In this document: positions 15,352 to 27,572 of the stretch, in pieces | Numbering within the stretch: the stretch's first letter is position 1 | How the letters are laid out: every line of letters starts with the position of its first letter | Assembly: GCF_000284455.1 (NCBI RefSeq) | Contig: NC_017039.1 | Location: 1,350,001 to 1,382,000 of the forward strand | Length of the DNA stretch: 32,000 nt | Origin: Synechocystis sp. PCC 6803 substr. PCC-P | GTDB lineage: Bacteria; Cyanobacteriota; Cyanobacteriia; Cyanobacteriales; Microcystaceae | Direction of reading: 5' to 3' | Notes under the pieces: model-generated | The model's database searches: none | The model's input: the letters and a program-made list of their open reading frames with translations, nothing else | Told to the model about the DNA's origin: nothing | Position numbers and translations under genes: made by a program

Positions 15352-15538
15352 AACTTCCCACGTCGTAATTTTGCTTAGGCTACAGCAAAAAAAGGCGATC
15401 GCCACAGTCAATGACGACAGACAGGTCCAAACTCAAAATAAAATTTCAATACTAAACAACTTTATTAATCTTTACAGTTTTCCTGAGTTGGTGGAACTAT
15501 CATTGTTTTACCAAGATCCCAACTTGATTATAGAGTTT

Positions 15539-15796
15539 ATGTTTTTACAGTCCTGGAAAAGCTTAGAGGGAACCCATTTGAAGGACAAGTACTTACTTGA
15601 AACCTTGCTTGGGATTGGTGGGTTCGGCGCAGTGTTTCTGTCAAAAACAGTCGGCCACGATGGGGCGATCGCCAAGGTTGCGGTGAAATTAATGGTCTGG
15701 GATAGCAAAAGGGAAAAAGAACAAACCCAAGAACTGGAGTTGGCAACTACGCTCAAGCACGACAGGCTAATCAATTTTGTCGATCTTGATCATTGA
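15539..15796 (+). pseudogene. Truncated Hanks-type Ser/Thr protein kinase, N-lobe only (subdomains I-IV)
   Basis: YLLETLLGIGGFGAVFLSKT is the Gly-rich loop GxGxFG. AKVAVKLM contains the VAxK catalytic lysine. ELELATTLKHDRLINFVD matches the alpha-C helix and subdomain IV (Lx-H-x-x-I). The frame then stops at 15796, 3 nt from the stop of the convergent HNH gene. No HRD, DFG or APE motif follows. Confidence 0.55.
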
Positions 15797-15799
15797 TGC

Positions 15800-16042
15800 T
15801 TAGCAATGGCGACGACGAAAGCGGGGATCAAACTTAGCTCCTTTACTGCCATTACAACTCTGACAAAGAGTTTGCAGATTACTCATGTCATTACTACCGC
15901 CCCTTGCCAAAGGAATAATGTGATCTACCTGTAAAGCCGTTTCATTGTGACTACAACCACAAGCTCGACAACGGTAATTATCCCTTCGGAAAACATACTC
16001 ACGAACGACGGCAGGGATGGGAATACGGGGCGTTTTTTCCAT
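15800..16042 (-). CDS. Small stand-alone HNH endonuclease
   Basis: YRCRACGCS...LQVDHIIPLARGGSNDMSNLQTLCQSCNGSKG is an HNH nuclease motif flanked by CxxC pairs. The probable start is the ATG at 16040-16042 (MEKTPRIPIP...). The track ORF extends to 16102. Confidence 0.8.
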   Translation of the reverse strand: MEKTPRIPIPAVVREYVFRRDNYRCRACGCSHNETALQVDHIIPLARGGSNDMSNLQTLCQSCNGSKGAKFDPRFRRRHC

Positions 16043-16155
16043 GGGAGTGGCACAAGAAACAAGGAAAATATCAATTTTTGTAAAGTCGAAGTCAACGGCC
16101 AATTAGTTTGAGCATAGCCTTGTATTAGAGCGATTTTTCCACTAACGAGGCTTCC

Positions 16156-18594
16156 ATGTCCAAGATTGCGCCCCAATGTCAGAATCTCCGTGAGCAAGTT
16201 AATCAGTTAATCGAGCTTCTGCGCCAGGAACCCACACTCCGCAGTCAGCAGGACACCAGCATTGTGGAAACGGCCTTAGGAAAGGCACTGTCCCCCCGGT
16301 TTGAAATTGTTTTTGCCGGGGCTTTTAGTGCCGGTAAGTCCATGCTGATCAATGCGTTGTTGGAGCGGGAATTGCTTTATAGTGCAGAAGGTCACGCCAC
16401 GGGGACAGAATGTCATATTGAATATGCTAACGCCAATGAAGAAAGGGTAGTGTTAACTTTTTTGAGTGAAGCGGAAATTCGTCAGCAGGCTTTGATTTTA
16501 GCAAAATATCTCAATGTCAATGTGGGGGATTTAAATATTAATCAACCTGAAGCAGTGAAGGTGGTTAGTCAATATTGTCAGAAAATAATTGCAGAAGAAG
16601 GGGGAGAAAATAAGTCAGAACGAGCCAAACAAGCCAATGCTCTACACTTACTACTAATAGGATTTGAGCAAAATCGAGAAAGGATTAATACTGTACAAAA
16701 TTCCACGTATTCTATGGATCAGTTAAATTTTTCTAGTTTAGCTGAAGCGGCAGGTTATGCGAGGCGGGGAGCTAATAGTGCGGTGCTTAAACGATTGGAT
16801 TATTTTTGTAATCACTCATTATTAAAAGATGGCAATGTCTTGGTGGATTTGCCAGGGATTGATGCCCCAGTTAAAGAAGATGCGGAAAGAGCTTACCGTA
16901 AAATTGAAAGCCCGGATACCTCAGCAGTGATCTGTGTGCTTAAACCAGCGGCAGCAGGAGATATGAGTGCAGAAGAAACACAATTATTAGAACGCATCAG
17001 CAAAAATCATGGCATCCGAGATCGGGTATTTTATGTGTTTAATCGCATTGACGATACTTGGTACAATACTCAACTGCGACAACGGCTAGAGGGTTTAATT
17101 CAGTCGCAATTTCGGGATAATTCTAGGGTCTATAAAACCAGTGGTTTACTTGGTTTCTACGGCAGTCAAGTTAAGCAGACTAATAGTAGTACTCGTTTTG
17201 GCTTGGACTCAATTTTTGCCACCACCATCAAAGGTTTTGACGGAGAGGAAGAAACACCACAATTTGTTAGCGAGTTTAATAACTACTGTGCTAATTCTGG
17301 TAAGTTATTGTCCACTGCTTTCCGGGTCTCGGTCAATGGTTATGAAACATCTAATGAAAATTATGTCAGAATTTTAAGTGAATGGGGAATACCATTAGTT
17401 GATCAACTAATCCATGACAGCGGAATTGAATCTTTTCGTTCTGGCATTGGTCTTTATTTAGCAGAGGAAAAATATCCTGAACTATTTGCAACTCTAGCTA
17501 ATGATTTGCAACCGTTATGTATTGCTCTACGGCAATTTTATCTAGAAAATTATCGGCAGTTAGATAGTCAGCCCCGGGAAATTGCGGCGATGAAAGCTCA
17601 GGAATTAACTTTGCTTAATCAAGAAATGCAAAATCTGGGTATTGAGTTCAAAAAATATATGAGTGCTCAAATTAATGATGTGGTTATCGGCAATGATCGG
17701 GAATTTGACCAAGATTTTACTAAGTTAAAAGCAAGAATGGTGGCTCGATTAGATGAGTTGTTAAAAACTTTTTCGGTAATGAATGCCTATAAGCGAGCAA
17801 CGGAAAGTCATCCTCGTAATTCCACAGCTCCTTTTATTGCAGTTTTGGTGGAGGCTTTATATTATCTTGCTAATGAATTGGAAGATGCTTTCATAGAAGC
17901 TATTCATGAGCTAGTTAAAAATTTCTTTCAACGATTAGGCGATCGCCTACGAAAAGTGGATTGTTACCATCAAGTTTATCGTTTGGTTGGCAATGATGGC
18001 GGTATTGAGCAACTATTACGACGGGCGGAAGAAGATATAACTAAAGCCTTGGTTAATGAAGCTCGAACGGAATGTGATCGTTATGTGCGGGAAAGTCCCC
18101 GATTTTATGATGAAGGTACTTTTTCCATTTATCAATTCCGGCAAACTCTCCAGCAAACTTCCCAGGGTTATGATGCCCAGGCGATCGTGGAAGCGGAACC
18201 AGCTATTAAGGAGTTGCTAAAACTAGATTTTGAACCTAAAGTTTTCAATACTGTACGGAAAAATTTCCGACAAACCGTCAATAATACCCTAAAAACCCAT
18301 CTGCTACCAATGGCAGAAGAACAAGCCCAAATAATTTTAGAACAGTATGATGTGGCAAGGAAATATCGTGAGCAAACGTTGGAACAGGATGCCGAAGAAA
18401 AAATTGCTCGCAATTCCCGTTTACAATCGGAGATTAAACAGAAAATCGATCTTTACCAAACGAGTATTGTTAGCATTAATGAATGTTTAAAAGCCATGCA
18501 AATTTTTGAGCAGTTACCTGTTATTACAGAATCAGACATTACTAAGCAAGCAGAAATAGTTGCAGATGCAGATTTTGTGGAAATAGTAGAATAA
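16156..18594 (+). CDS. Dynamin-family large GTPase (bacterial dynamin-like protein), 812 aa
   Basis: The Dynamin_N-type G domain is readable. G1 is FEIVFAGAFSAGKSMLINALLERELL (GAFSAGKS at 16318-16341). The candidate switch-I Thr lies in GHATGTECHIEY. G3 is VLVDLPGIDAP. The G4-like motif is VFYVFNRIDD. About 500 aa of predicted helical stalk follow. I saw no obvious TM segment. Confidence 0.8.
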   Translation: MSKIAPQCQNLREQVNQLIELLRQEPTLRSQQDTSIVETALGKALSPRFEIVFAGAFSAGKSMLINALLERELLYSAEGHATGTECHIEYANANEERVVLTFLSEAEIRQQALILAKYLNVNVGDLNINQPEAVKVVSQYCQKIIAEEGGENKSERAKQANALHLLLIGFEQNRERINTVQNSTYSMDQLNFSSLAEAAGYARRGANSAVLKRLDYFCNHSLLKDGNVLVDLPGIDAPVKEDAERAYRKIESPDTSAVICVLKPAAAGDMSAEETQLLERISKNHGIRDRVFYVFNRIDDTWYNTQLRQRLEGLIQSQFRDNSRVYKTSGLLGFYGSQVKQTNSSTRFGLDSIFATTIKGFDGEEETPQFVSEFNNYCANSGKLLSTAFRVSVNGYETSNENYVRILSEWGIPLVDQLIHDSGIESFRSGIGLYLAEEKYPELFATLANDLQPLCIALRQFYLENYRQLDSQPREIAAMKAQELTLLNQEMQNLGIEFKKYMSAQINDVVIGNDREFDQDFTKLKARMVARLDELLKTFSVMNAYKRATESHPRNSTAPFIAVLVEALYYLANELEDAFIEAIHELVKNFFQRLGDRLRKVDCYHQVYRLVGNDGGIEQLLRRAEEDITKALVNEARTECDRYVRESPRFYDEGTFSIYQFRQTLQQTSQGYDAQAIVEAEPAIKELLKLDFEPKVFNTVRKNFRQTVNNTLKTHLLPMAEEQAQIILEQYDVARKYREQTLEQDAEEKIARNSRLQSEIKQKIDLYQTSIVSINECLKAMQIFEQLPVITESDITKQAEIVADADFVEIVE

Positions 18595-18682: not shown

Positions 18683-19045
18683 ATGCAAATTATCTACGAC
18701 GAATTCCTAGAATCCCTAAATGCTGATGACGTCCTACAGTTATTAGACAAACAGTTTCCCGGCAAATTGTTTTCAGTATCTCGTATTAAACATACCTTAG
18801 AATATTCTTTTCAGCAGCCACCACAAGAGAAATTTATTGAGCAATTAGAACTTGGATCTAGAGCAAGCATTTACTTGGGTCAAGGTGTTGATTGTCGAAT
18901 TTTAAAAGCTGGATCCAGTGGCTGGAAAAAAGGAAGGATTGCAGTTAATGTGTCTGTAGAGTTCATTCCCGATGAGCCTGAGGCAAATGAATATCAATCT
19001 CCGTTAGATGAAATTCGTCGAGAAATACAATCTGATCTTCAATGA
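18683..19045 (+). CDS. Small KGK-like protein, paralog 1 (120 aa)
   Basis: The product ends ...SSGWKKGRIAVNVSVEFIPDEPEANEYQSPLDEIRREIQSDLQ. It shares the (K)KG(K/R)-I-x-(V/I)-x-(L/V)-EFIPDE ... SPLDEIRRE tail with the next two ORFs. It resembles the cyanobacterial KGK domain (Pfam PF08872, recalled from memory). Confidence 0.7.
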   Translation: MQIIYDEFLESLNADDVLQLLDKQFPGKLFSVSRIKHTLEYSFQQPPQEKFIEQLELGSRASIYLGQGVDCRILKAGSSGWKKGRIAVNVSVEFIPDEPEANEYQSPLDEIRREIQSDLQ

Positions 19046-19069
19046 TTTATCAATTGAAATATTAAAAAT

Positions 19070-19453
19070 ATGAAAACCGACAAAATTGGCTACCTTAATT
19101 CACTCAGTGAAGACACTGTTATTGATTGTGGTAATAACCATTCCTTTTACAAAATTAAAACTTTAATCGGTGAGTTTGTTAATTTCTTTAAAACTGTACC
19201 CTGGTGTAATAAAGATTATTTTTATAAAGCTTTTCAAGTTAGTCTGAAAGACCATAAATCAATCGATATTAAACCAGAAATTTTTACAGAAGAAGGTATA
19301 ATTGCTGAAATTATTGATCCTAAATTGGACAAACCGCTAAAGGGAAAATTTAGAATAATCTTTGCCCTGGAGTTTATCCCGGATGAGGTTCAAGATTCAG
19401 TTTCGGATTCTCCCCTCGATGAGATTCGTCGAGAAATAGAGCAAAGTAGCTGA
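19070..19453 (+). CDS. Small KGK-like protein, paralog 2 (127 aa)
   Basis: The product ends ...KPLKGKFRIIFALEFIPDEVQDSVSDSPLDEIRREIEQSS. It starts 24 nt after paralog 1. Confidence 0.7.
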   Translation: MKTDKIGYLNSLSEDTVIDCGNNHSFYKIKTLIGEFVNFFKTVPWCNKDYFYKAFQVSLKDHKSIDIKPEIFTEEGIIAEIIDPKLDKPLKGKFRIIFALEFIPDEVQDSVSDSPLDEIRREIEQSS

Positions 19454-19463
19454 GGACATTACC

Positions 19464-19760
19464 ATGGACAAAAGACAATTACTTAACCCTGAAGATGTAG
19501 TTTCAGTAACTGACTCCGACAAAATATGTATTAATCATAAAACTTTTACTGTTCAAGAATTACTAGGAGCCTTTTTGACAAAATGGTTCAATAGTGATAT
19601 AGGCAAAAGGTGGTTATTTGAAGGTACAGAGTGCCAATATCTTGCCCCCGGTAAGCTATGGAAAAAAGGAAAAATTAAAATAAGCCTTGAATTTATTCCC
19701 GATGAAGCGGAATCACCTCTCGATGAAATTCGTCGAGAAATGACCGAAAATCAATCTTAA
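19464..19760 (+). CDS. Small KGK-like protein, paralog 3 (98 aa)
   Basis: The product ends ...LWKKGKIKISLEFIPDEAESPLDEIRREMTENQS. It starts 10 nt after paralog 2. Its N-terminal half aligns with paralog 2 (C-x-NH-x2-F ... L-x-G-x-F). Confidence 0.7.
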   Translation: MDKRQLLNPEDVVSVTDSDKICINHKTFTVQELLGAFLTKWFNSDIGKRWLFEGTECQYLAPGKLWKKGKIKISLEFIPDEAESPLDEIRREMTENQS

Positions 19761-24377: not shown

Positions 24378-27300
24378 ATGGATTTTACTAAAATAAAGAG
24401 AATTGAAGAGAATTTAAACAGGCTTGAGGACTGTTCTGTTGATGAGTTAAAAGTTTTAACTGATGAACTGTTAGCTTCCATTTGTGAAACCTTAAATATT
24501 TCTCAGAGTTCTAACCTTATTTCAGCTTTATTTAATGAGCGAACAAGTACCAACCAAAAAAAACTAATAGCCGTATCTATGCTAAGAGCCTTATGCAGGA
24601 ATCAAAGCGTAGTTTGGAATCACAATAGTGTCACACTACGCAATAAAACATTTGATTTATTCGATGAGATTTTAGTGGATATTTATAAGCAGTTTCAGAT
24701 AGATATTAAATCAGATAAAGAAGAAAAAACATCAAAACTTCAAGAAATTGAAGGAAATTTAAATCGCAAGTTCTTTAATCTTGAACAATCAATTTGTGAC
24801 TTGAAGGATTTGGATAAATTCAAAAGCGACTTTATGCAATTTTTGTTTGCTGATAAAGTTAATAGCTTTATTTTTAGACAGTTTTCAGATGAAGATATCT
24901 TAAGTAAACCTAAAATACAATCACTATTTAAAATTCTTCAAGATTATCAAAAAAGCAATTCTGTTGAATCAAAAATCAACTATTATGACAATATAAAAAA
25001 TAGTTATCAGGAATTTATTGATCAATGTTCCAAACAATCAGAATTAGTTGAAACTTGTATTGGTAATTTTTTCAAGAGGCTACTTAATTTAGTTGATGAA
25101 GATTATACAAAGAGAGATGATATTGTTCCAACAATAATACGTGTAGAACTCATAAAGAAAAAATATCCTCTCCACATAAAAGACCAACTATTAAATATAG
25201 AAATTCAAGTGAATAATATAGGCAAAGGAAAAGCTTTTGATATTGAAGTTACTCTTGATGTAGATGATAGTTTATTGATGCTTTATGACCCTAAAATATA
25301 TATTGGAAATCTCGAGCCATTAGAATCTACACATCGGATATTTGAAGCCAAAATTCTTGTGCAGAAAAACAAAGAAAAACTAGAAGAAATTATCTTGGGT
25401 AGAGTTGATTGGTATAACTGCGACAAGACCAGGTGCCATGAAGAATTTAGTGGTGAGTTGCTTCCACAAAATACAGAACTAAACTGGGAAAAATTAAGTA
25501 AGGAAAAACCCTACAGTTTAGAGGCTATTTCTAAAGAAAACGATTTAATTGGTCGTTCAGAACAAATTAGACAGCTTGAAAATAAAATTTTCTCTGACGA
25601 ATTAGAATCTTCAATCATCTTTGGACAAAAGAGAGTTGGAAAAACATCAATTGCCAAAATCATTGAAAATAAGCTAAAAAAACATTCACTCTATACTGCA
25701 ATTTATATTTCAGTAGGTTCCCTTGATAAAAGTTCTCCCGAAAAATTCTTAAAATCTTTAGGGGAATATATTTATGAAGAAATCATTGATGATCAACCAT
25801 TCAATGAATATAAACTTCCAGGGTTTGAGTTTGAAGATTCAATTACACCTTTAGATAAATTATTTAGAAAAATACGAAAAATTGAACCCAATCACAAATT
25901 TGTGATTATTCTTGATGAGTTCGATGAAATTCCTTCTCAATTATACAAGCTGACGGATATCGGAGACAATTTTTTTCATAATATTAGAAGTTTAAGCAGT
26001 AACAATAATATTGGATTTATTTTAGTTGGCGGAGAGAATATGACGACAATCAATCAATCAACTGATAAATTAAATAAATTTGAATCCTTTCCAGTTGATT
26101 ATTTTGATAAAGGAAGATTTTGGAAAGACTTTCAAGACTTAGTATGCAAACCTGTTGAAGGAATAATAGAATTTACTGATAATGCAATATTAGAACTCTA
26201 TAAAATGACAGAAGGAAATCCATTTTTTACAAAATTAATATGTGGAAATATTTATAATATGGCTTGTGAAACCAGAAACGCTTATGTTTCTTATGAAGAA
26301 GTTACTAAAGCAATCTCAAAGAGTTTATCTTCCATTAATAGTAATAATGTTAATCATTTCTGGAAAGATGGAATTAAAGAAAGCGATCCAGTAGAAGTAG
26401 ACAAAATTGAAACTCAGAGACGAAAATTTTTAATTTCTTATGCTAGAGAAATTCGCTCAGGCAAGAACAGCTTCACAAAAGAAGTCGTTCTGAATAATAG
26501 CATATTAGACAAGACTGTAACAACAAAGGTATTTGAAAGTTTCGTCAATCGCAAAATTTTGATTGAGGAATCTGAAAACTATAGATTTAAGCCTTTATTC
26601 TTTGATAAATGGCTAACAAATGAAGGTTTTAACATCATTACATCTGAAGCTCTTGATGAGCAAGCTATTGAAGAATTAGAAAAAGAAGAGGACAGGGCTT
26701 ATGTTGAAGACACAGAAATTGTTGATTTATGTAAATCATGGGGAGAGATCGCAACATACAGAGCACAACAAATTACACCTCAACACATTCGCAGTTGGCT
26801 TGATCAATTTTCAAACAATATTGAAAAACGTCTTATGTTCATTCTATTGTTAAATTTAAAGTTTTATACACAAATAGAAGTTAGAGAAAAACTAGGAATC
26901 ATTCATAATGAGGTAAAAAAAGGATTGGTATACAAGCTTCCCAAAAATGCAAAAGGGGAAACAAAAACAAGAGAAGTTTTATTAAGTGCTTTTGGGAGTC
27001 CAACAAAAAGCGGTTCTACCTACTTAAGATTATATGCGACGGTAAATAATTTTTATCGTAGTAGTTCACATAATGTGTCTTTGTCTAAAATCAAAGAAGC
27101 TATTATCCAAGATAAAGAAATTCAAAGAATTGTTTTTATAGAAGATATAATTGGTTCTGGTCAATCAATCATTAGAGGGCTTGATACATTGAGTAATTTA
27201 TGTGGATCTCTGATAAAAGAACATAAAATTACAGTCTTTGTTGGTGCTATCTGTGGCTTTGAATCGGGCATAGAAAATATTGAAATAAAAGGAAATGAAT

Positions 27301-27572
27301 TACCTTTTAATGTCAAGGTATTTGTCTGCGATCATCTCACCGAACAAGATCAGTGTTTCAGTGAGAGTTCATCAATGTTTAATTCTTCTCAGGAAAGGAA
27401 TAAAGCAAAAGAAATTGCTTATACTTATGGCAGTAAACTTGTTAAAACAATGCCTTTAGGATACAAAGATAATCAGCTCCTAGTTTCTTTTTTTGAAACC
27501 TGTCCCAATAATAGCCTTCCCATATTATGGGCAGAGAAAAGTGATTGGAAAGCTATCTTTAGAAGAGACTGA
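24378..27572 (+). CDS. 1064-aa multidomain protein: N-terminal helical region, possible beta-sandwich, STAND/AAA-type P-loop NTPase and C-terminal phosphoribosyltransferase-like domain
   Basis: The LIGRSEQIRQLENKI lead-in precedes Walker A GQKRVGKT (25623-25646). Walker B is FVIILDEFDE (25899-25928). A GNPFFTKLI helix follows, as seen in ATPase_2/AAA_16-type STAND NTPases. The C-terminal motif IVFIEDIIGSGQS (27129-27167) fits the type-I PRTase PRPP loop: hydrophobic run, two acidic residues, hydrophobic, then a small-residue G-x-S/T turn. Residues ~250-345 (IEIQVNNIGKGKAFDIEVTLDV...GNLEPLES) look like a CARDB-type beta-sandwich. Confidence 0.7.
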   Translation: MDFTKIKRIEENLNRLEDCSVDELKVLTDELLASICETLNISQSSNLISALFNERTSTNQKKLIAVSMLRALCRNQSVVWNHNSVTLRNKTFDLFDEILVDIYKQFQIDIKSDKEEKTSKLQEIEGNLNRKFFNLEQSICDLKDLDKFKSDFMQFLFADKVNSFIFRQFSDEDILSKPKIQSLFKILQDYQKSNSVESKINYYDNIKNSYQEFIDQCSKQSELVETCIGNFFKRLLNLVDEDYTKRDDIVPTIIRVELIKKKYPLHIKDQLLNIEIQVNNIGKGKAFDIEVTLDVDDSLLMLYDPKIYIGNLEPLESTHRIFEAKILVQKNKEKLEEIILGRVDWYNCDKTRCHEEFSGELLPQNTELNWEKLSKEKPYSLEAISKENDLIGRSEQIRQLENKIFSDELESSIIFGQKRVGKTSIAKIIENKLKKHSLYTAIYISVGSLDKSSPEKFLKSLGEYIYEEIIDDQPFNEYKLPGFEFEDSITPLDKLFRKIRKIEPNHKFVIILDEFDEIPSQLYKLTDIGDNFFHNIRSLSSNNNIGFILVGGENMTTINQSTDKLNKFESFPVDYFDKGRFWKDFQDLVCKPVEGIIEFTDNAILELYKMTEGNPFFTKLICGNIYNMACETRNAYVSYEEVTKAISKSLSSINSNNVNHFWKDGIKESDPVEVDKIETQRRKFLISYAREIRSGKNSFTKEVVLNNSILDKTVTTKVFESFVNRKILIEESENYRFKPLFFDKWLTNEGFNIITSEALDEQAIEELEKEEDRAYVEDTEIVDLCKSWGEIATYRAQQITPQHIRSWLDQFSNNIEKRLMFILLLNLKFYTQIEVREKLGIIHNEVKKGLVYKLPKNAKGETKTREVLLSAFGSPTKSGSTYLRLYATVNNFYRSSSHNVSLSKIKEAIIQDKEIQRIVFIEDIIGSGQSIIRGLDTLSNLCGSLIKEHKITVFVGAICGFESGIENIEIKGNELPFNVKVFVCDHLTEQDQCFSESSSMFNSSQERNKAKEIAYTYGSKLVKTMPLGYKDNQLLVSFFETCPNNSLPILWAEKSDWKAIFRRD

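Follow-up and report, generated by a model that had tools for sequence, protein, structure and literature searches.

INTRODUCTION

The KGK domain (PF08872) is restricted to cyanobacteria (PMC3141437, PMC5827413), and linkage of KGK genes to a GTPase gene defines the "KGK clade" of cyanobacterial dynamin-like proteins, in which the function of the domain was called enigmatic (Jilly et al. 2018; PMC5827413). The same linkage was restated for SynDLP (Gewehr et al. 2023; PMC10104851), and both papers already guess at a role of the KGK domain in protein-protein interaction. SynDLP is the best-characterized cyanobacterial dynamin, with a structure from cryo-electron microscopy. Cells do not require it under standard conditions, and the authors of that work expect accessory proteins to limit its oligomerization and futile GTP hydrolysis (PMC10104851). 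Here, we analyzed a stretch of 32,000 nucleotides from Synechocystis sp. PCC 6803 substr. PCC-P (contig NC_017039.1, positions 1,350,001 to 1,382,000; "the window" below) that holds the SynDLP gene, with a focus on the three tandem small open reading frames (ORFs) behind it. The products of these ORFs differ over most of their length and end in a nearly constant C-terminal tail, EFIPDE-spacer-SPLDEIRRE.

The KGK family, the identities of the genes, and their linkage to the GTPase are already known and published for this operon. Our comparisons indicate that the three ORFs in the SynDLP operon arose by old duplications within the cyanobacterial KGK family and that their common C terminus is the signature of one KGK subfamily, encoded inside a cassette of GTPase, KGK, and HNH nuclease genes. 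The nuclease, of ~80 amino acids, seems to be a third cassette member that is always included. It is apparently unreported, and the text of Jilly et al. 2018 (PMC5827413) contains none of the terms HNH, endonuclease, or nuclease. The KGK-domain literature that we searched held no account of the tail as a separable motif, of its restriction to the cassette, of concerted tails, or of zero to five copies with unequal rates.

RESULTS

The window is the SynDLP locus

The window is the SynDLP locus of Synechocystis PCC 6803, since its 812-residue GTPase matches the "Slr0869 protein" of PDB entry 7ZW6 over the full length (residues 1 to 812, 1790 bits) and its KGK ORFs are exact matches to proteins of PCC 6803. 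The genes and tails considered here are as follows (positions in the window).

15800..16042, minus strand: minimal HNH endonuclease, 80 amino acids from the ATG (Pfam HNH_5, 1.4e-18; HNH, 8e-15)
16156..18594, plus strand: SynDLP (slr0869), dynamin-like GTPase of the KGK clade, 812 amino acids (Pfam Dynamin_N, 2.2e-16)
18683..19045, plus strand: KGK paralog 1 (slr0870), 120 amino acids, exact database match (Pfam KGK, 4.1e-27, 95.4 bits, profile positions 6 to 119 of 119)
18959..19024, plus strand: tail of paralog 1, EFIPDE, 7-residue acidic spacer, SPLDEIRRE (tail alone, 32.8 bits against Pfam KGK positions 88 to 119)
19070..19453, plus strand: KGK paralog 2 (slr0871), 127 amino acids, exact database match (Pfam KGK, 2.5e-24, 86.4 bits)
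19370..19435, plus strand: tail of paralog 2, EFIPDE, 7-residue spacer, SPLDEIRRE (tail alone, 26 bits against Pfam KGK)
19464..19760, plus strand: KGK paralog 3, 98 amino acids (Pfam KGK, 2.6e-12, 47.7 bits, residues 47 to 93)
19689..19739, plus strand: tail of paralog 3, EFIPDE, 2-residue spacer, SPLDEIRRE (tail alone, 18.8 bits against Pfam KGK)

All three ORFs exceed the gathering threshold of the Pfam KGK model (25.6 bits), with the match reaching the last profile position. The basic K-G-K motif of the family reads WKKGR, PLKGK, and WKKGK in paralogs 1, 2, and 3, respectively, and its glycine is invariant among 67 aligned homologs. Paralog 3 is an exact match to a Synechocystis "KGK domain-containing protein," for which the database names returned carried no slr or ssr name. 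The GTPase is a Dynamin_N protein of the SynDLP clade, with the KGK genes starting 88 bp downstream. The size of ~120 amino acids, the cyanobacterial restriction, and the position behind the GTPase gene all agree with the published description, and we regard the window and the KGK-clade operon as the same thing (Jilly et al. 2018; Gewehr et al. 2023). A reading of this DNA made earlier from its letters alone (the sequence-only reading) had linked the KGK copies to the upstream GTPase; this link is borne out by the published clade and by recurrence of the operon order in other loci (22 of 35 anchored on the HNH gene and the majority of those anchored on KGK genes). The window HNH protein is an exact match to an annotated 80-amino-acid Synechocystis HNH endonuclease, and its mechanical ORF extends to 16102 from a TTG start.

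The tail belongs to the KGK family and follows genomic context

The sequence-only reading had described three ORFs with divergent bodies and a near-constant tail, and this description holds. Whole-length identity to the first ORF is 22% and 40%, and all three proteins carry both EFIPDE (nucleotides 18959 to 18976, 19370 to 19387, and 19689 to 19706) and SPLDEIRRE (18998 to 19024, 19409 to 19435, and 19713 to 19739). Each tail runs from the basic K-G-K (KKGR, LKGK, or KKGK) through a short alternating segment to EFIPDE, the spacer, and SPLDEIRRE, after which 6 or 7 residues remain. Tail-only peptides of 26 to 31 residues match Pfam KGK positions 88 to 119 (33, 26, and 19 bits after rounding). 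The proposal that the paralogs converge on the tail was not borne out: the ORFs belong to a known Pfam family, the tail lies inside the family model, and it is better described as a signature retained by old paralogs.

When the search profile included the tail, all of the 120 homologs listed carried the tail or a close variant. A second profile, built from 35 diverse members with the tail cut off, was searched against 1.84 billion representatives and matched 798 of them at E ≤ 0.001. The tail census covers the 145 new sequences among the best 150 of these matches, with the core motif scored as hydrophobic, D/E, any residue, hydrophobic, R/K near the C terminus. The core was present in 107 of the 145, and 5 more had near variants (e.g., SPLDEIY and SPLAEVR); 7 stopped just past the body, and 26 had other C termini, ~20 of which look truly different. 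Thus, ~75% of KGK relatives found without using the tail carry it. The family consensus is SPLDD(I/L)R, which in Synechocystis and its relatives takes the form SPLDEIRRE. Across the family the spacer ranges from 0 to ~20 residues (modes at 1, 3, 8, and 19), and the SPLDxIR-type motif is followed by 3 to 10 or more unconserved residues, sometimes many more, before the C terminus. From these alignments, the placement of a conserved tail on a spacer of freely variable length appears to be a new observation.

The presence of the tail varied with genomic neighborhood. In loci with a GTPase gene, an HNH gene, or both, 141 of 150 non-identical KGK copies carried the core motif, and the remaining 9 were near variants or truncated or broken genes. 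Distant tail-bearing KGK proteins (P0121, P0137, and P0151) likewise adjoin a GTPase or HNH gene. In contrast, the KGK proteins with other C termini that were placed on contigs were stand-alone in 5 of 5 cases, with no dynamin or HNH gene nearby: P0208 adjoins cysS, P0246 is preceded by 6 kb of small ORFs, P0205 lies behind ftsZ and adjoins psbA, and P0176 and P0214 each have 7 kb of housekeeping genes on either side. A glnA-type gene was also among the neighbors of KGK proteins with other C termini. This contrast is suggestive and is not a statistic. The tail appears to mark the KGK subfamily linked to the cassette, which also appears to be new. The possibility that the tail is generic to KGK proteins whatever their context therefore stands only in part: about three-quarters of relatives have it, but it is not independent of context, as the other C termini are found in stand-alone genes and the cassette copies are nearly all tailed.

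KGK proteins that lack the SPLDxIR tail (P0208, P0218, P0246, and P0175; loci L022 and L024) repeatedly end in an acidic-plus-tryptophan motif (...ELLEDIWG, ...ELLEDVWD, ...DLFDDVWQDMQ, and ...EVEDVWKV). To judge from these sequences, this ending may be a second tail type of KGK proteins.

An HNH nuclease gene accompanies the GTPase and KGK genes

The first distant locus had the order GTPase, KGK, KGK, and a gene for an 81-amino-acid HNH protein. Searches by tblastn with the window HNH protein found orthologs at 64 to 82% identity beside the cassette in nearly every KGK-anchored locus, and each of the 10 KGK-anchored genome loci whose flanks were long enough had an adjacent HNH ortholog. Among loci with full coverage, none had a GTPase gene and KGK genes without an HNH gene. 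The residues D40, H41, N51, N55, and N64 and the cysteines C25, C28, C60, and C63 are invariant in 13 orthologs, and the catalytic histidine, the conserved asparagines, and the Cys4 zinc site of the window protein are intact. Its matches to Pfam HNH_5 and HNH both exceed the cutoffs of these models.

The usual cassette order, on a single strand, is GTPase, zero to five KGK genes, and HNH, with the HNH gene usually last. In the window the HNH gene is inverted on the minus strand, divergent from the GTPase gene and 113 bp from the SynDLP start, and it is likewise inverted upstream in the two closest relatives (L004 and L001). In L005 the inverted gene is the GTPase gene. Through all of these inversions (the window, L001, L004, and L005), the GTPase, KGK, and HNH genes remain adjacent.

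A metagenome scan anchored on the HNH gene returned 80 loci. Where at least 5 kb of upstream sequence was available (n = 35), 22 loci had GTPase and KGK genes, 6 had the GTPase gene only, 3 had KGK only, and 4 had neither. KGK copies per GTPase-containing locus ranged from 0 to 5. In L103, L106, L110, L107, L093, L102, and L051, the HNH gene comes after the GTPase gene without an intervening KGK gene, and in three of these loci the gap is <200 bp. The GTPases of the KGK-less loci L103, L106, L110 (just under the 5-kb cutoff), and L107 are the most divergent, at 44 to 50% identity to SynDLP. Because these four KGK-less loci hold the most divergent GTPases, the pairing of GTPase and HNH nuclease seems, on these sequence comparisons, to be older or wider than the insertion of KGK genes.

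Identities of the GTPase and HNH proteins to the window copies covaried across loci (Pearson r = 0.65, n = 42), although the loci are not independent. Eight window genes around the cassette were looked for elsewhere (lptC-like, mutS, TPR, and OMP decarboxylase genes among them), and none turned up within 8 to 10 kb of the cassette in any other locus; the flanking genes were unshared even where the GTPase was 91% identical. The cassette therefore changes genomic context as a unit, and it behaves as a unit.

Other loci deviate from the complete cassette. In L017 (9785 to 10384) and in L083 to L085, KGK and HNH genes occur together in housekeeping surroundings, with no dynamin gene within 4.7 to 9.7 kb upstream; L017 also has a gene for an Uma2-family putative restriction endonuclease directly upstream. 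Four cassettes show decay or interruption. In L011 and L012, an insert of ~1.5 kb divides the GTPase gene after residue 37, and one KGK gene is truncated. L010 has a split HNH gene and a partial duplicate of the GTPase, and L038 has transposase-like ORFs between the GTPase and HNH genes.

KGK hits with names were all cyanobacterial, with one exception, a contig labeled Sphingobacterium. This contig (L014; CALRTB020000005.1, 267 kb, from a metagenome-assembled genome labeled Sphingobacterium thalpophilum) carries a cyanobacterial-type cassette with four KGK genes, an HNH gene, and a GTPase 66% identical to SynDLP, and it is probably misbinned. No KGK relatives were found in viral contigs, and no relatives of SynDLP were found on plasmids at E ≤ 1e-20.

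Predicted structure and charge suggest a tethered helix

The AlphaFold2 model of paralog 1 (67 sequences) had a mean predicted local distance difference test score (pLDDT) of 81 and an alpha/beta body, with helices at residues 7 to 11, 32 to 42, and 47 to 54 and strands at 17 to 20, 29 to 31, 69 to 74, and 81 to 86. Block means of pLDDT were 73 to 93 over residues 1 to 100, including 84 over residues 91 to 100 (EFIPDE), and ~60 over the spacer and a terminal helix at 107 to 118. The model of paralog 3, from a shallow alignment, scored 67 and kept the order of elements seen in paralog 1, except that the N-terminal helix and one internal helix were missing; a C-terminal helix was predicted at residues 85 to 97. 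Comparison of the paralog 1 model with the PDB by Foldseek gave no match below E = 1, comparison with a viral structure library gave none below E = 0.29, and a profile search of PDB sequences with KGK gave only a chance-level match to EspA (E = 0.6).

These models suggest that the tail has three parts, namely, EFxPDE, which closes the last extended segment; an acidic spacer that varies in length and is predicted to be disordered; and a short amphipathic helix built around the core (S)PLD(D/E)(I/L)R. The net charge of the tail is −7, −7, and −6 in paralogs 1, 2, and 3, respectively, while the bodies carry 0 to +3 (0 in paralog 1), so that the net negative charge is confined to the tails. With a pI of 9.5 and a net charge of +7, the HNH protein is basic. 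SynDLP has a pI of 5.1 and has been reported to bind anionic lipids (PMC10104851).

The sequence-only reading had taken divergent bodies, a variable acidic spacer, and a constant short helix as suggestive of a shared docking peptide, and the pattern is confirmed in the window. We infer, with about even confidence, that all KGK paralogs of a genome share the tail as a tethered docking helix, whose target is a single-copy partner encoded in the cassette. Each paralog would engage this same partner through its tail, and the divergent, fast-turning-over bodies would supply alternative adaptor, sensor, or regulatory surfaces.

A rival explanation is that the tail is a structural or oligomerization element of the KGK proteins, in which the helix and EFxPDE pack on the same or another KGK body, e.g., on the basic GWKKGK hairpin. 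The outcome would be autoinhibition, or homo- or hetero-oligomers of KGK proteins, and neither the GTPase nor the nuclease would be required. The tail is indeed part of the Pfam domain model, and EFIPDE is modeled confidently (pLDDT 84, as above); however, the same body fold exists without this tail, and so the body does not need it. The segment from KGK to EF shows strand-like alternation and is left unpaired by DSSP in the monomer model, as if a partner strand were needed, while the helix beyond it has low model confidence in both modeled paralogs. An acidic tail would complement the basic KGK hairpin, and the similarity of tails within genomes (see below) would also follow if tails bound the bodies of paralogs. 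Nevertheless, disordered spacers of up to ~20 residues speak against a fixed packing position, and packing leaves unexplained why the tail is nearly confined to cassette-linked copies. We consider this explanation unlikely.

Bodies diverge at unequal rates while tails evolve in concert

Body-only identity among the three window paralogs is 21 to 39%, whereas the same bodies are 51 to 60% identical to their best counterparts in other genera, a range that includes the orthologs of the short type (paralog 3). The duplications are therefore old. Between the window and L004, identity is 91% for the GTPase and 82% for the HNH protein, the short KGK3 type is nearly unchanged, and the KGK1-type body is 44% identical, with 11 of 12 tail positions matching. 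KGK bodies in L004 and L001 have 44 to 51% protein identity to those of the window. No KGK copy in L001 or L004 exceeds 34% body identity to paralog 2, and the KGK2 type thus appears to be absent from both; orthologs of slr0871 occur at 58 to 72% identity in other Synechocystis. These identities indicate that the paralog types evolve at very unequal rates, with paralog 1 fast and paralog 3 short and conservative.

Tail identity was compared within and between loci for KGK pairs with similar body identity.

Body identity 20 to 30%: tail identity 0.65 within a locus, 0.55 between loci
Body identity 30 to 40%: tail identity 0.78 within a locus, 0.57 between loci
Body identity 40 to 60%: tail identity 0.81 within a locus, 0.60 between loci

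The body-matched excess of tail identity within loci was 0.16, a value reached in none of 2000 label permutations. In L099, four copies carry ESPLDEIRQQLT, and two of them have identical tail DNA; in L007, three copies carry ESPLDDIRREIN and one carries ESPLDDIRREIK. Tails evolve in concert within genomes, which appears to be new.

A second rival explanation is that gene conversion, also put forward in the sequence-only reading, or recent duplication of the tandem copies keeps the tails identical and that the tail has no specific function. The shared 20-nucleotide strings lie exactly where that reading had placed them: 19007 to 19026 is identical to 19722 to 19741, and 19418 to 19437 differs from these by a single change. 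Such matches were absent from 100 of 100 shuffles of the window, and a repeat finder returned both tail parts as three-copy families. The conservation of DNA is nonetheless weaker than it first appears. Of 15 invariant tail codons, 8 to 9 are identical per pair, compared to 6.9 expected from the codon usage of the window, and the codons for Ser, Pro, Leu, Phe, Ile, and some Glu differ among the three tails. An identical run of 18 nucleotides inside the SPLDEIRRE codons had a simulated P of ~0.03, and the rare Arg-Arg codon pair CGT CGA is present in all three copies. Across loci, codon identity at identical residues was 0.62 within and 0.49 between loci, a modest difference that, like the two tails of L099 with identical DNA, is in the direction expected from conversion. 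Because synonymous sites differ, recent gene conversion is not the cause of the tail identity, and the claim of conversion is unsupported in its recent form. In addition, the duplications are old, and the motif is kept in about three-quarters of 145 representatives at ≤50% identity from many genera, which requires purifying selection. On these sequence grounds, gene conversion as the sole explanation is largely refuted, and we give it very little credence; selection of all tails in a genome toward a common target, or old conversion, would explain the identity.

Even less probable is that the tail acts as a C-terminal degron or export signal, the protease or secretion tag of the sequence-only reading: the tail is C-terminal, conserved, and acidic-amphipathic, and the operon is stress regulated through LexA, but the motif lies at no fixed distance from the C terminus (3 to 10 or more variable, unconserved residues), none of the three paralogs has a hydrophobic, signal-peptide-like N terminus, and conservation is specific to the cassette rather than genome-wide. 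The weight that remains beyond the docking role and these three rivals goes to something else.

Operon, expression, and neighboring genes

The gaps between the GTPase gene and KGK1, KGK1 and KGK2, and KGK2 and KGK3 are 88, 24, and 10 bp, respectively, with no convincing terminator between the genes, which fits a single operon. In a lexA mutant, slr0868, slr0869, slr0870, and slr0871 rose together by 6- to 16-fold, with slr0868 at 16-fold (PMC4759255).

The ORF at 15371 to 15796 (plus strand) is probably slr0868. Its product is limited to the N-lobe of a Ser/Thr protein kinase (GxGxxG ... VAVK), with a Pkinase match of 21.5 bits that is below the cutoff. We considered this ORF as a further cassette member and rejected it, as no homolog was found beside the cassette in other loci. 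A transcript reading through from slr0868 to slr0871 would run antisense to the HNH gene (window positions 15800 to 16160). A promoter-like site that includes an extended −10 TG lies at 16162 to 16133 on the minus strand, and the HNH gene could be transcribed from it divergently from SynDLP. This antisense, divergent arrangement of the HNH gene is specific to Synechocystis.

About 4.6 kb from the KGK cluster and adjoining mutS lies a defense-like gene (24378 to 27572, plus strand; 1064 amino acids). Its product has an AAA/STAND-like NTPase region and a C-terminal PRTase-CE domain (Pfam PF24390, 1e-52), and its C terminus matches the PADLOC models of retron type III-A PRTase effectors (3e-41). 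An Rfam scan of the whole window at gathering thresholds gave no match.

DISCUSSION

The tail of the KGK proteins in the SynDLP operon combines near-confinement to cassette-linked copies, concerted evolution within genomes, and a predicted helix on a flexible acidic tether, a combination that we read as docking to a cassette partner. Several observations weigh against this reading. GTPase-HNH loci exist that have no KGK gene, and the KGK proteins are therefore not essential to the GTPase-HNH pair. HNH sequences from loci with and without KGK genes showed no systematic difference and no partner-side signature, and thus offered no ground for preferring either the HNH protein or the GTPase as partner. 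In Aliterella atlantica (L015), a lone tail-bearing KGK gene has a ccsA-like gene on one side and tilS on the other, and 10 kb of flanking sequence was available in each direction. Sampling was biased, in that the cassette loci were found via the tail pattern or the HNH gene and the stand-alone loci were hand-picked (n = 5). Finally, concerted tails are also expected from older gene conversion or from contacts between tails and KGK bodies.

The HNH nuclease is no weaker a candidate partner than the GTPase stalk proposed in the sequence-only reading. If the tail does dock, the nuclease ranks slightly ahead of the GTPase as its candidate partner, because the charge of the nuclease is complementary to that of the tail, because KGK-HNH loci without a GTPase exist, and because no fully covered GTPase-KGK locus is without an HNH gene. 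The loose statement that the KGK domain may mediate interactions would become specific, with a tail of 20 to 30 residues and two defined candidate partners. If the tail merely belongs to the fold, it is an ordinary family signature.

The constant presence of the HNH nuclease, apparently overlooked, suggests that a bacterial dynamin may be tied to DNA cleavage. One possibility, which we put forward as speculative and on balance doubtful, is that the SynDLP-type GTPase, the KGK proteins, and the ~80-amino-acid HNH nuclease form an undescribed three-component machine. In such a machine, a DNA nuclease would be under the control of a dynamin-like polymer, and the KGK proteins would serve as exchangeable adaptors or sensors whose tail keeps the nuclease (or the GTPase) bound or silent until a signal arrives from the membrane or from stress. 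If this were true, the machine could act against phages or in other conflicts, or could process DNA at membranes; the function of SynDLP would shift from thylakoid housekeeping to a nuclease-coupled system, and the KGK family would gain its first function.

Comparison with known systems

Among defense systems, Septu (PtuA/PtuB) and Zorya type II (ZorE) resemble the cassette in that a nucleotide-hydrolyzing protein is encoded beside a small HNH nuclease in a unit that moves between contexts. The NTPase of the cassette is a dynamin-like GTPase rather than an ABC-type ATPase, and the window HNH protein gave weak, generic matches to the PtuB and ZorE models over the HNH core (E of 1e-4 to 4e-4). 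We rejected an assignment to Septu, since the PtuB matches were at E of 1e-4 or weaker and no PtuA model was matched by the six cassette proteins scanned. Eleos (LeoA/LeoBC) is likewise an operon of bacterial dynamin-like GTPases, with a proposed role in phage defense, but it has no KGK or HNH component. SynDLP matched LeoA in the N-terminal P-loop region only (residues 9 to 71, E of 5e-8) and LeoBC weakly (E of 1.4e-6, residues 46 to 268 aligned to 86 of 601 profile positions). Eleos was rejected because these matches are partial only and the window has a single GTPase gene.

In colicin DNase-immunity pairs (e.g., E9-Im9), as in the cassette, a small acidic protein is encoded beside a basic HNH nuclease of complementary charge. 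The KGK proteins share no sequence or fold similarity with colicin immunity proteins, however, and there are several KGK copies per nuclease. An assignment to this class was rejected on the fold: immunity proteins of the Im type have four helices, whereas the KGK model is alpha/beta and matched nothing in the PDB at E < 1, and no solved structure matched in sequence at E < 0.6. Nor are the KGK proteins an obligatory antidote, because GTPase-HNH loci without a KGK gene exist. The defining components of Eleos, Septu, and colicin-immunity systems were tested for and not found, and the cassette is therefore filed under none of them. More broadly, it is not filed under any known defense system, since the KGK proteins had no match in PADLOC and the GTPase and HNH matches were generic.

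For the tail itself, the closest likeness is to bacterial SSB, in which a disordered linker carries a conserved acidic tip, DDDIPF, that docks onto partner proteins. Both SSB and the KGK proteins have a folded body, a variable linker of low complexity, and a short, highly conserved acidic C-terminal motif. The two are not homologous, and the KGK motif is predicted to be helical and is not at the extreme C terminus. The proposed logic is also reversed: one SSB protein serves many partners, whereas several KGK paralogs would converge on one.

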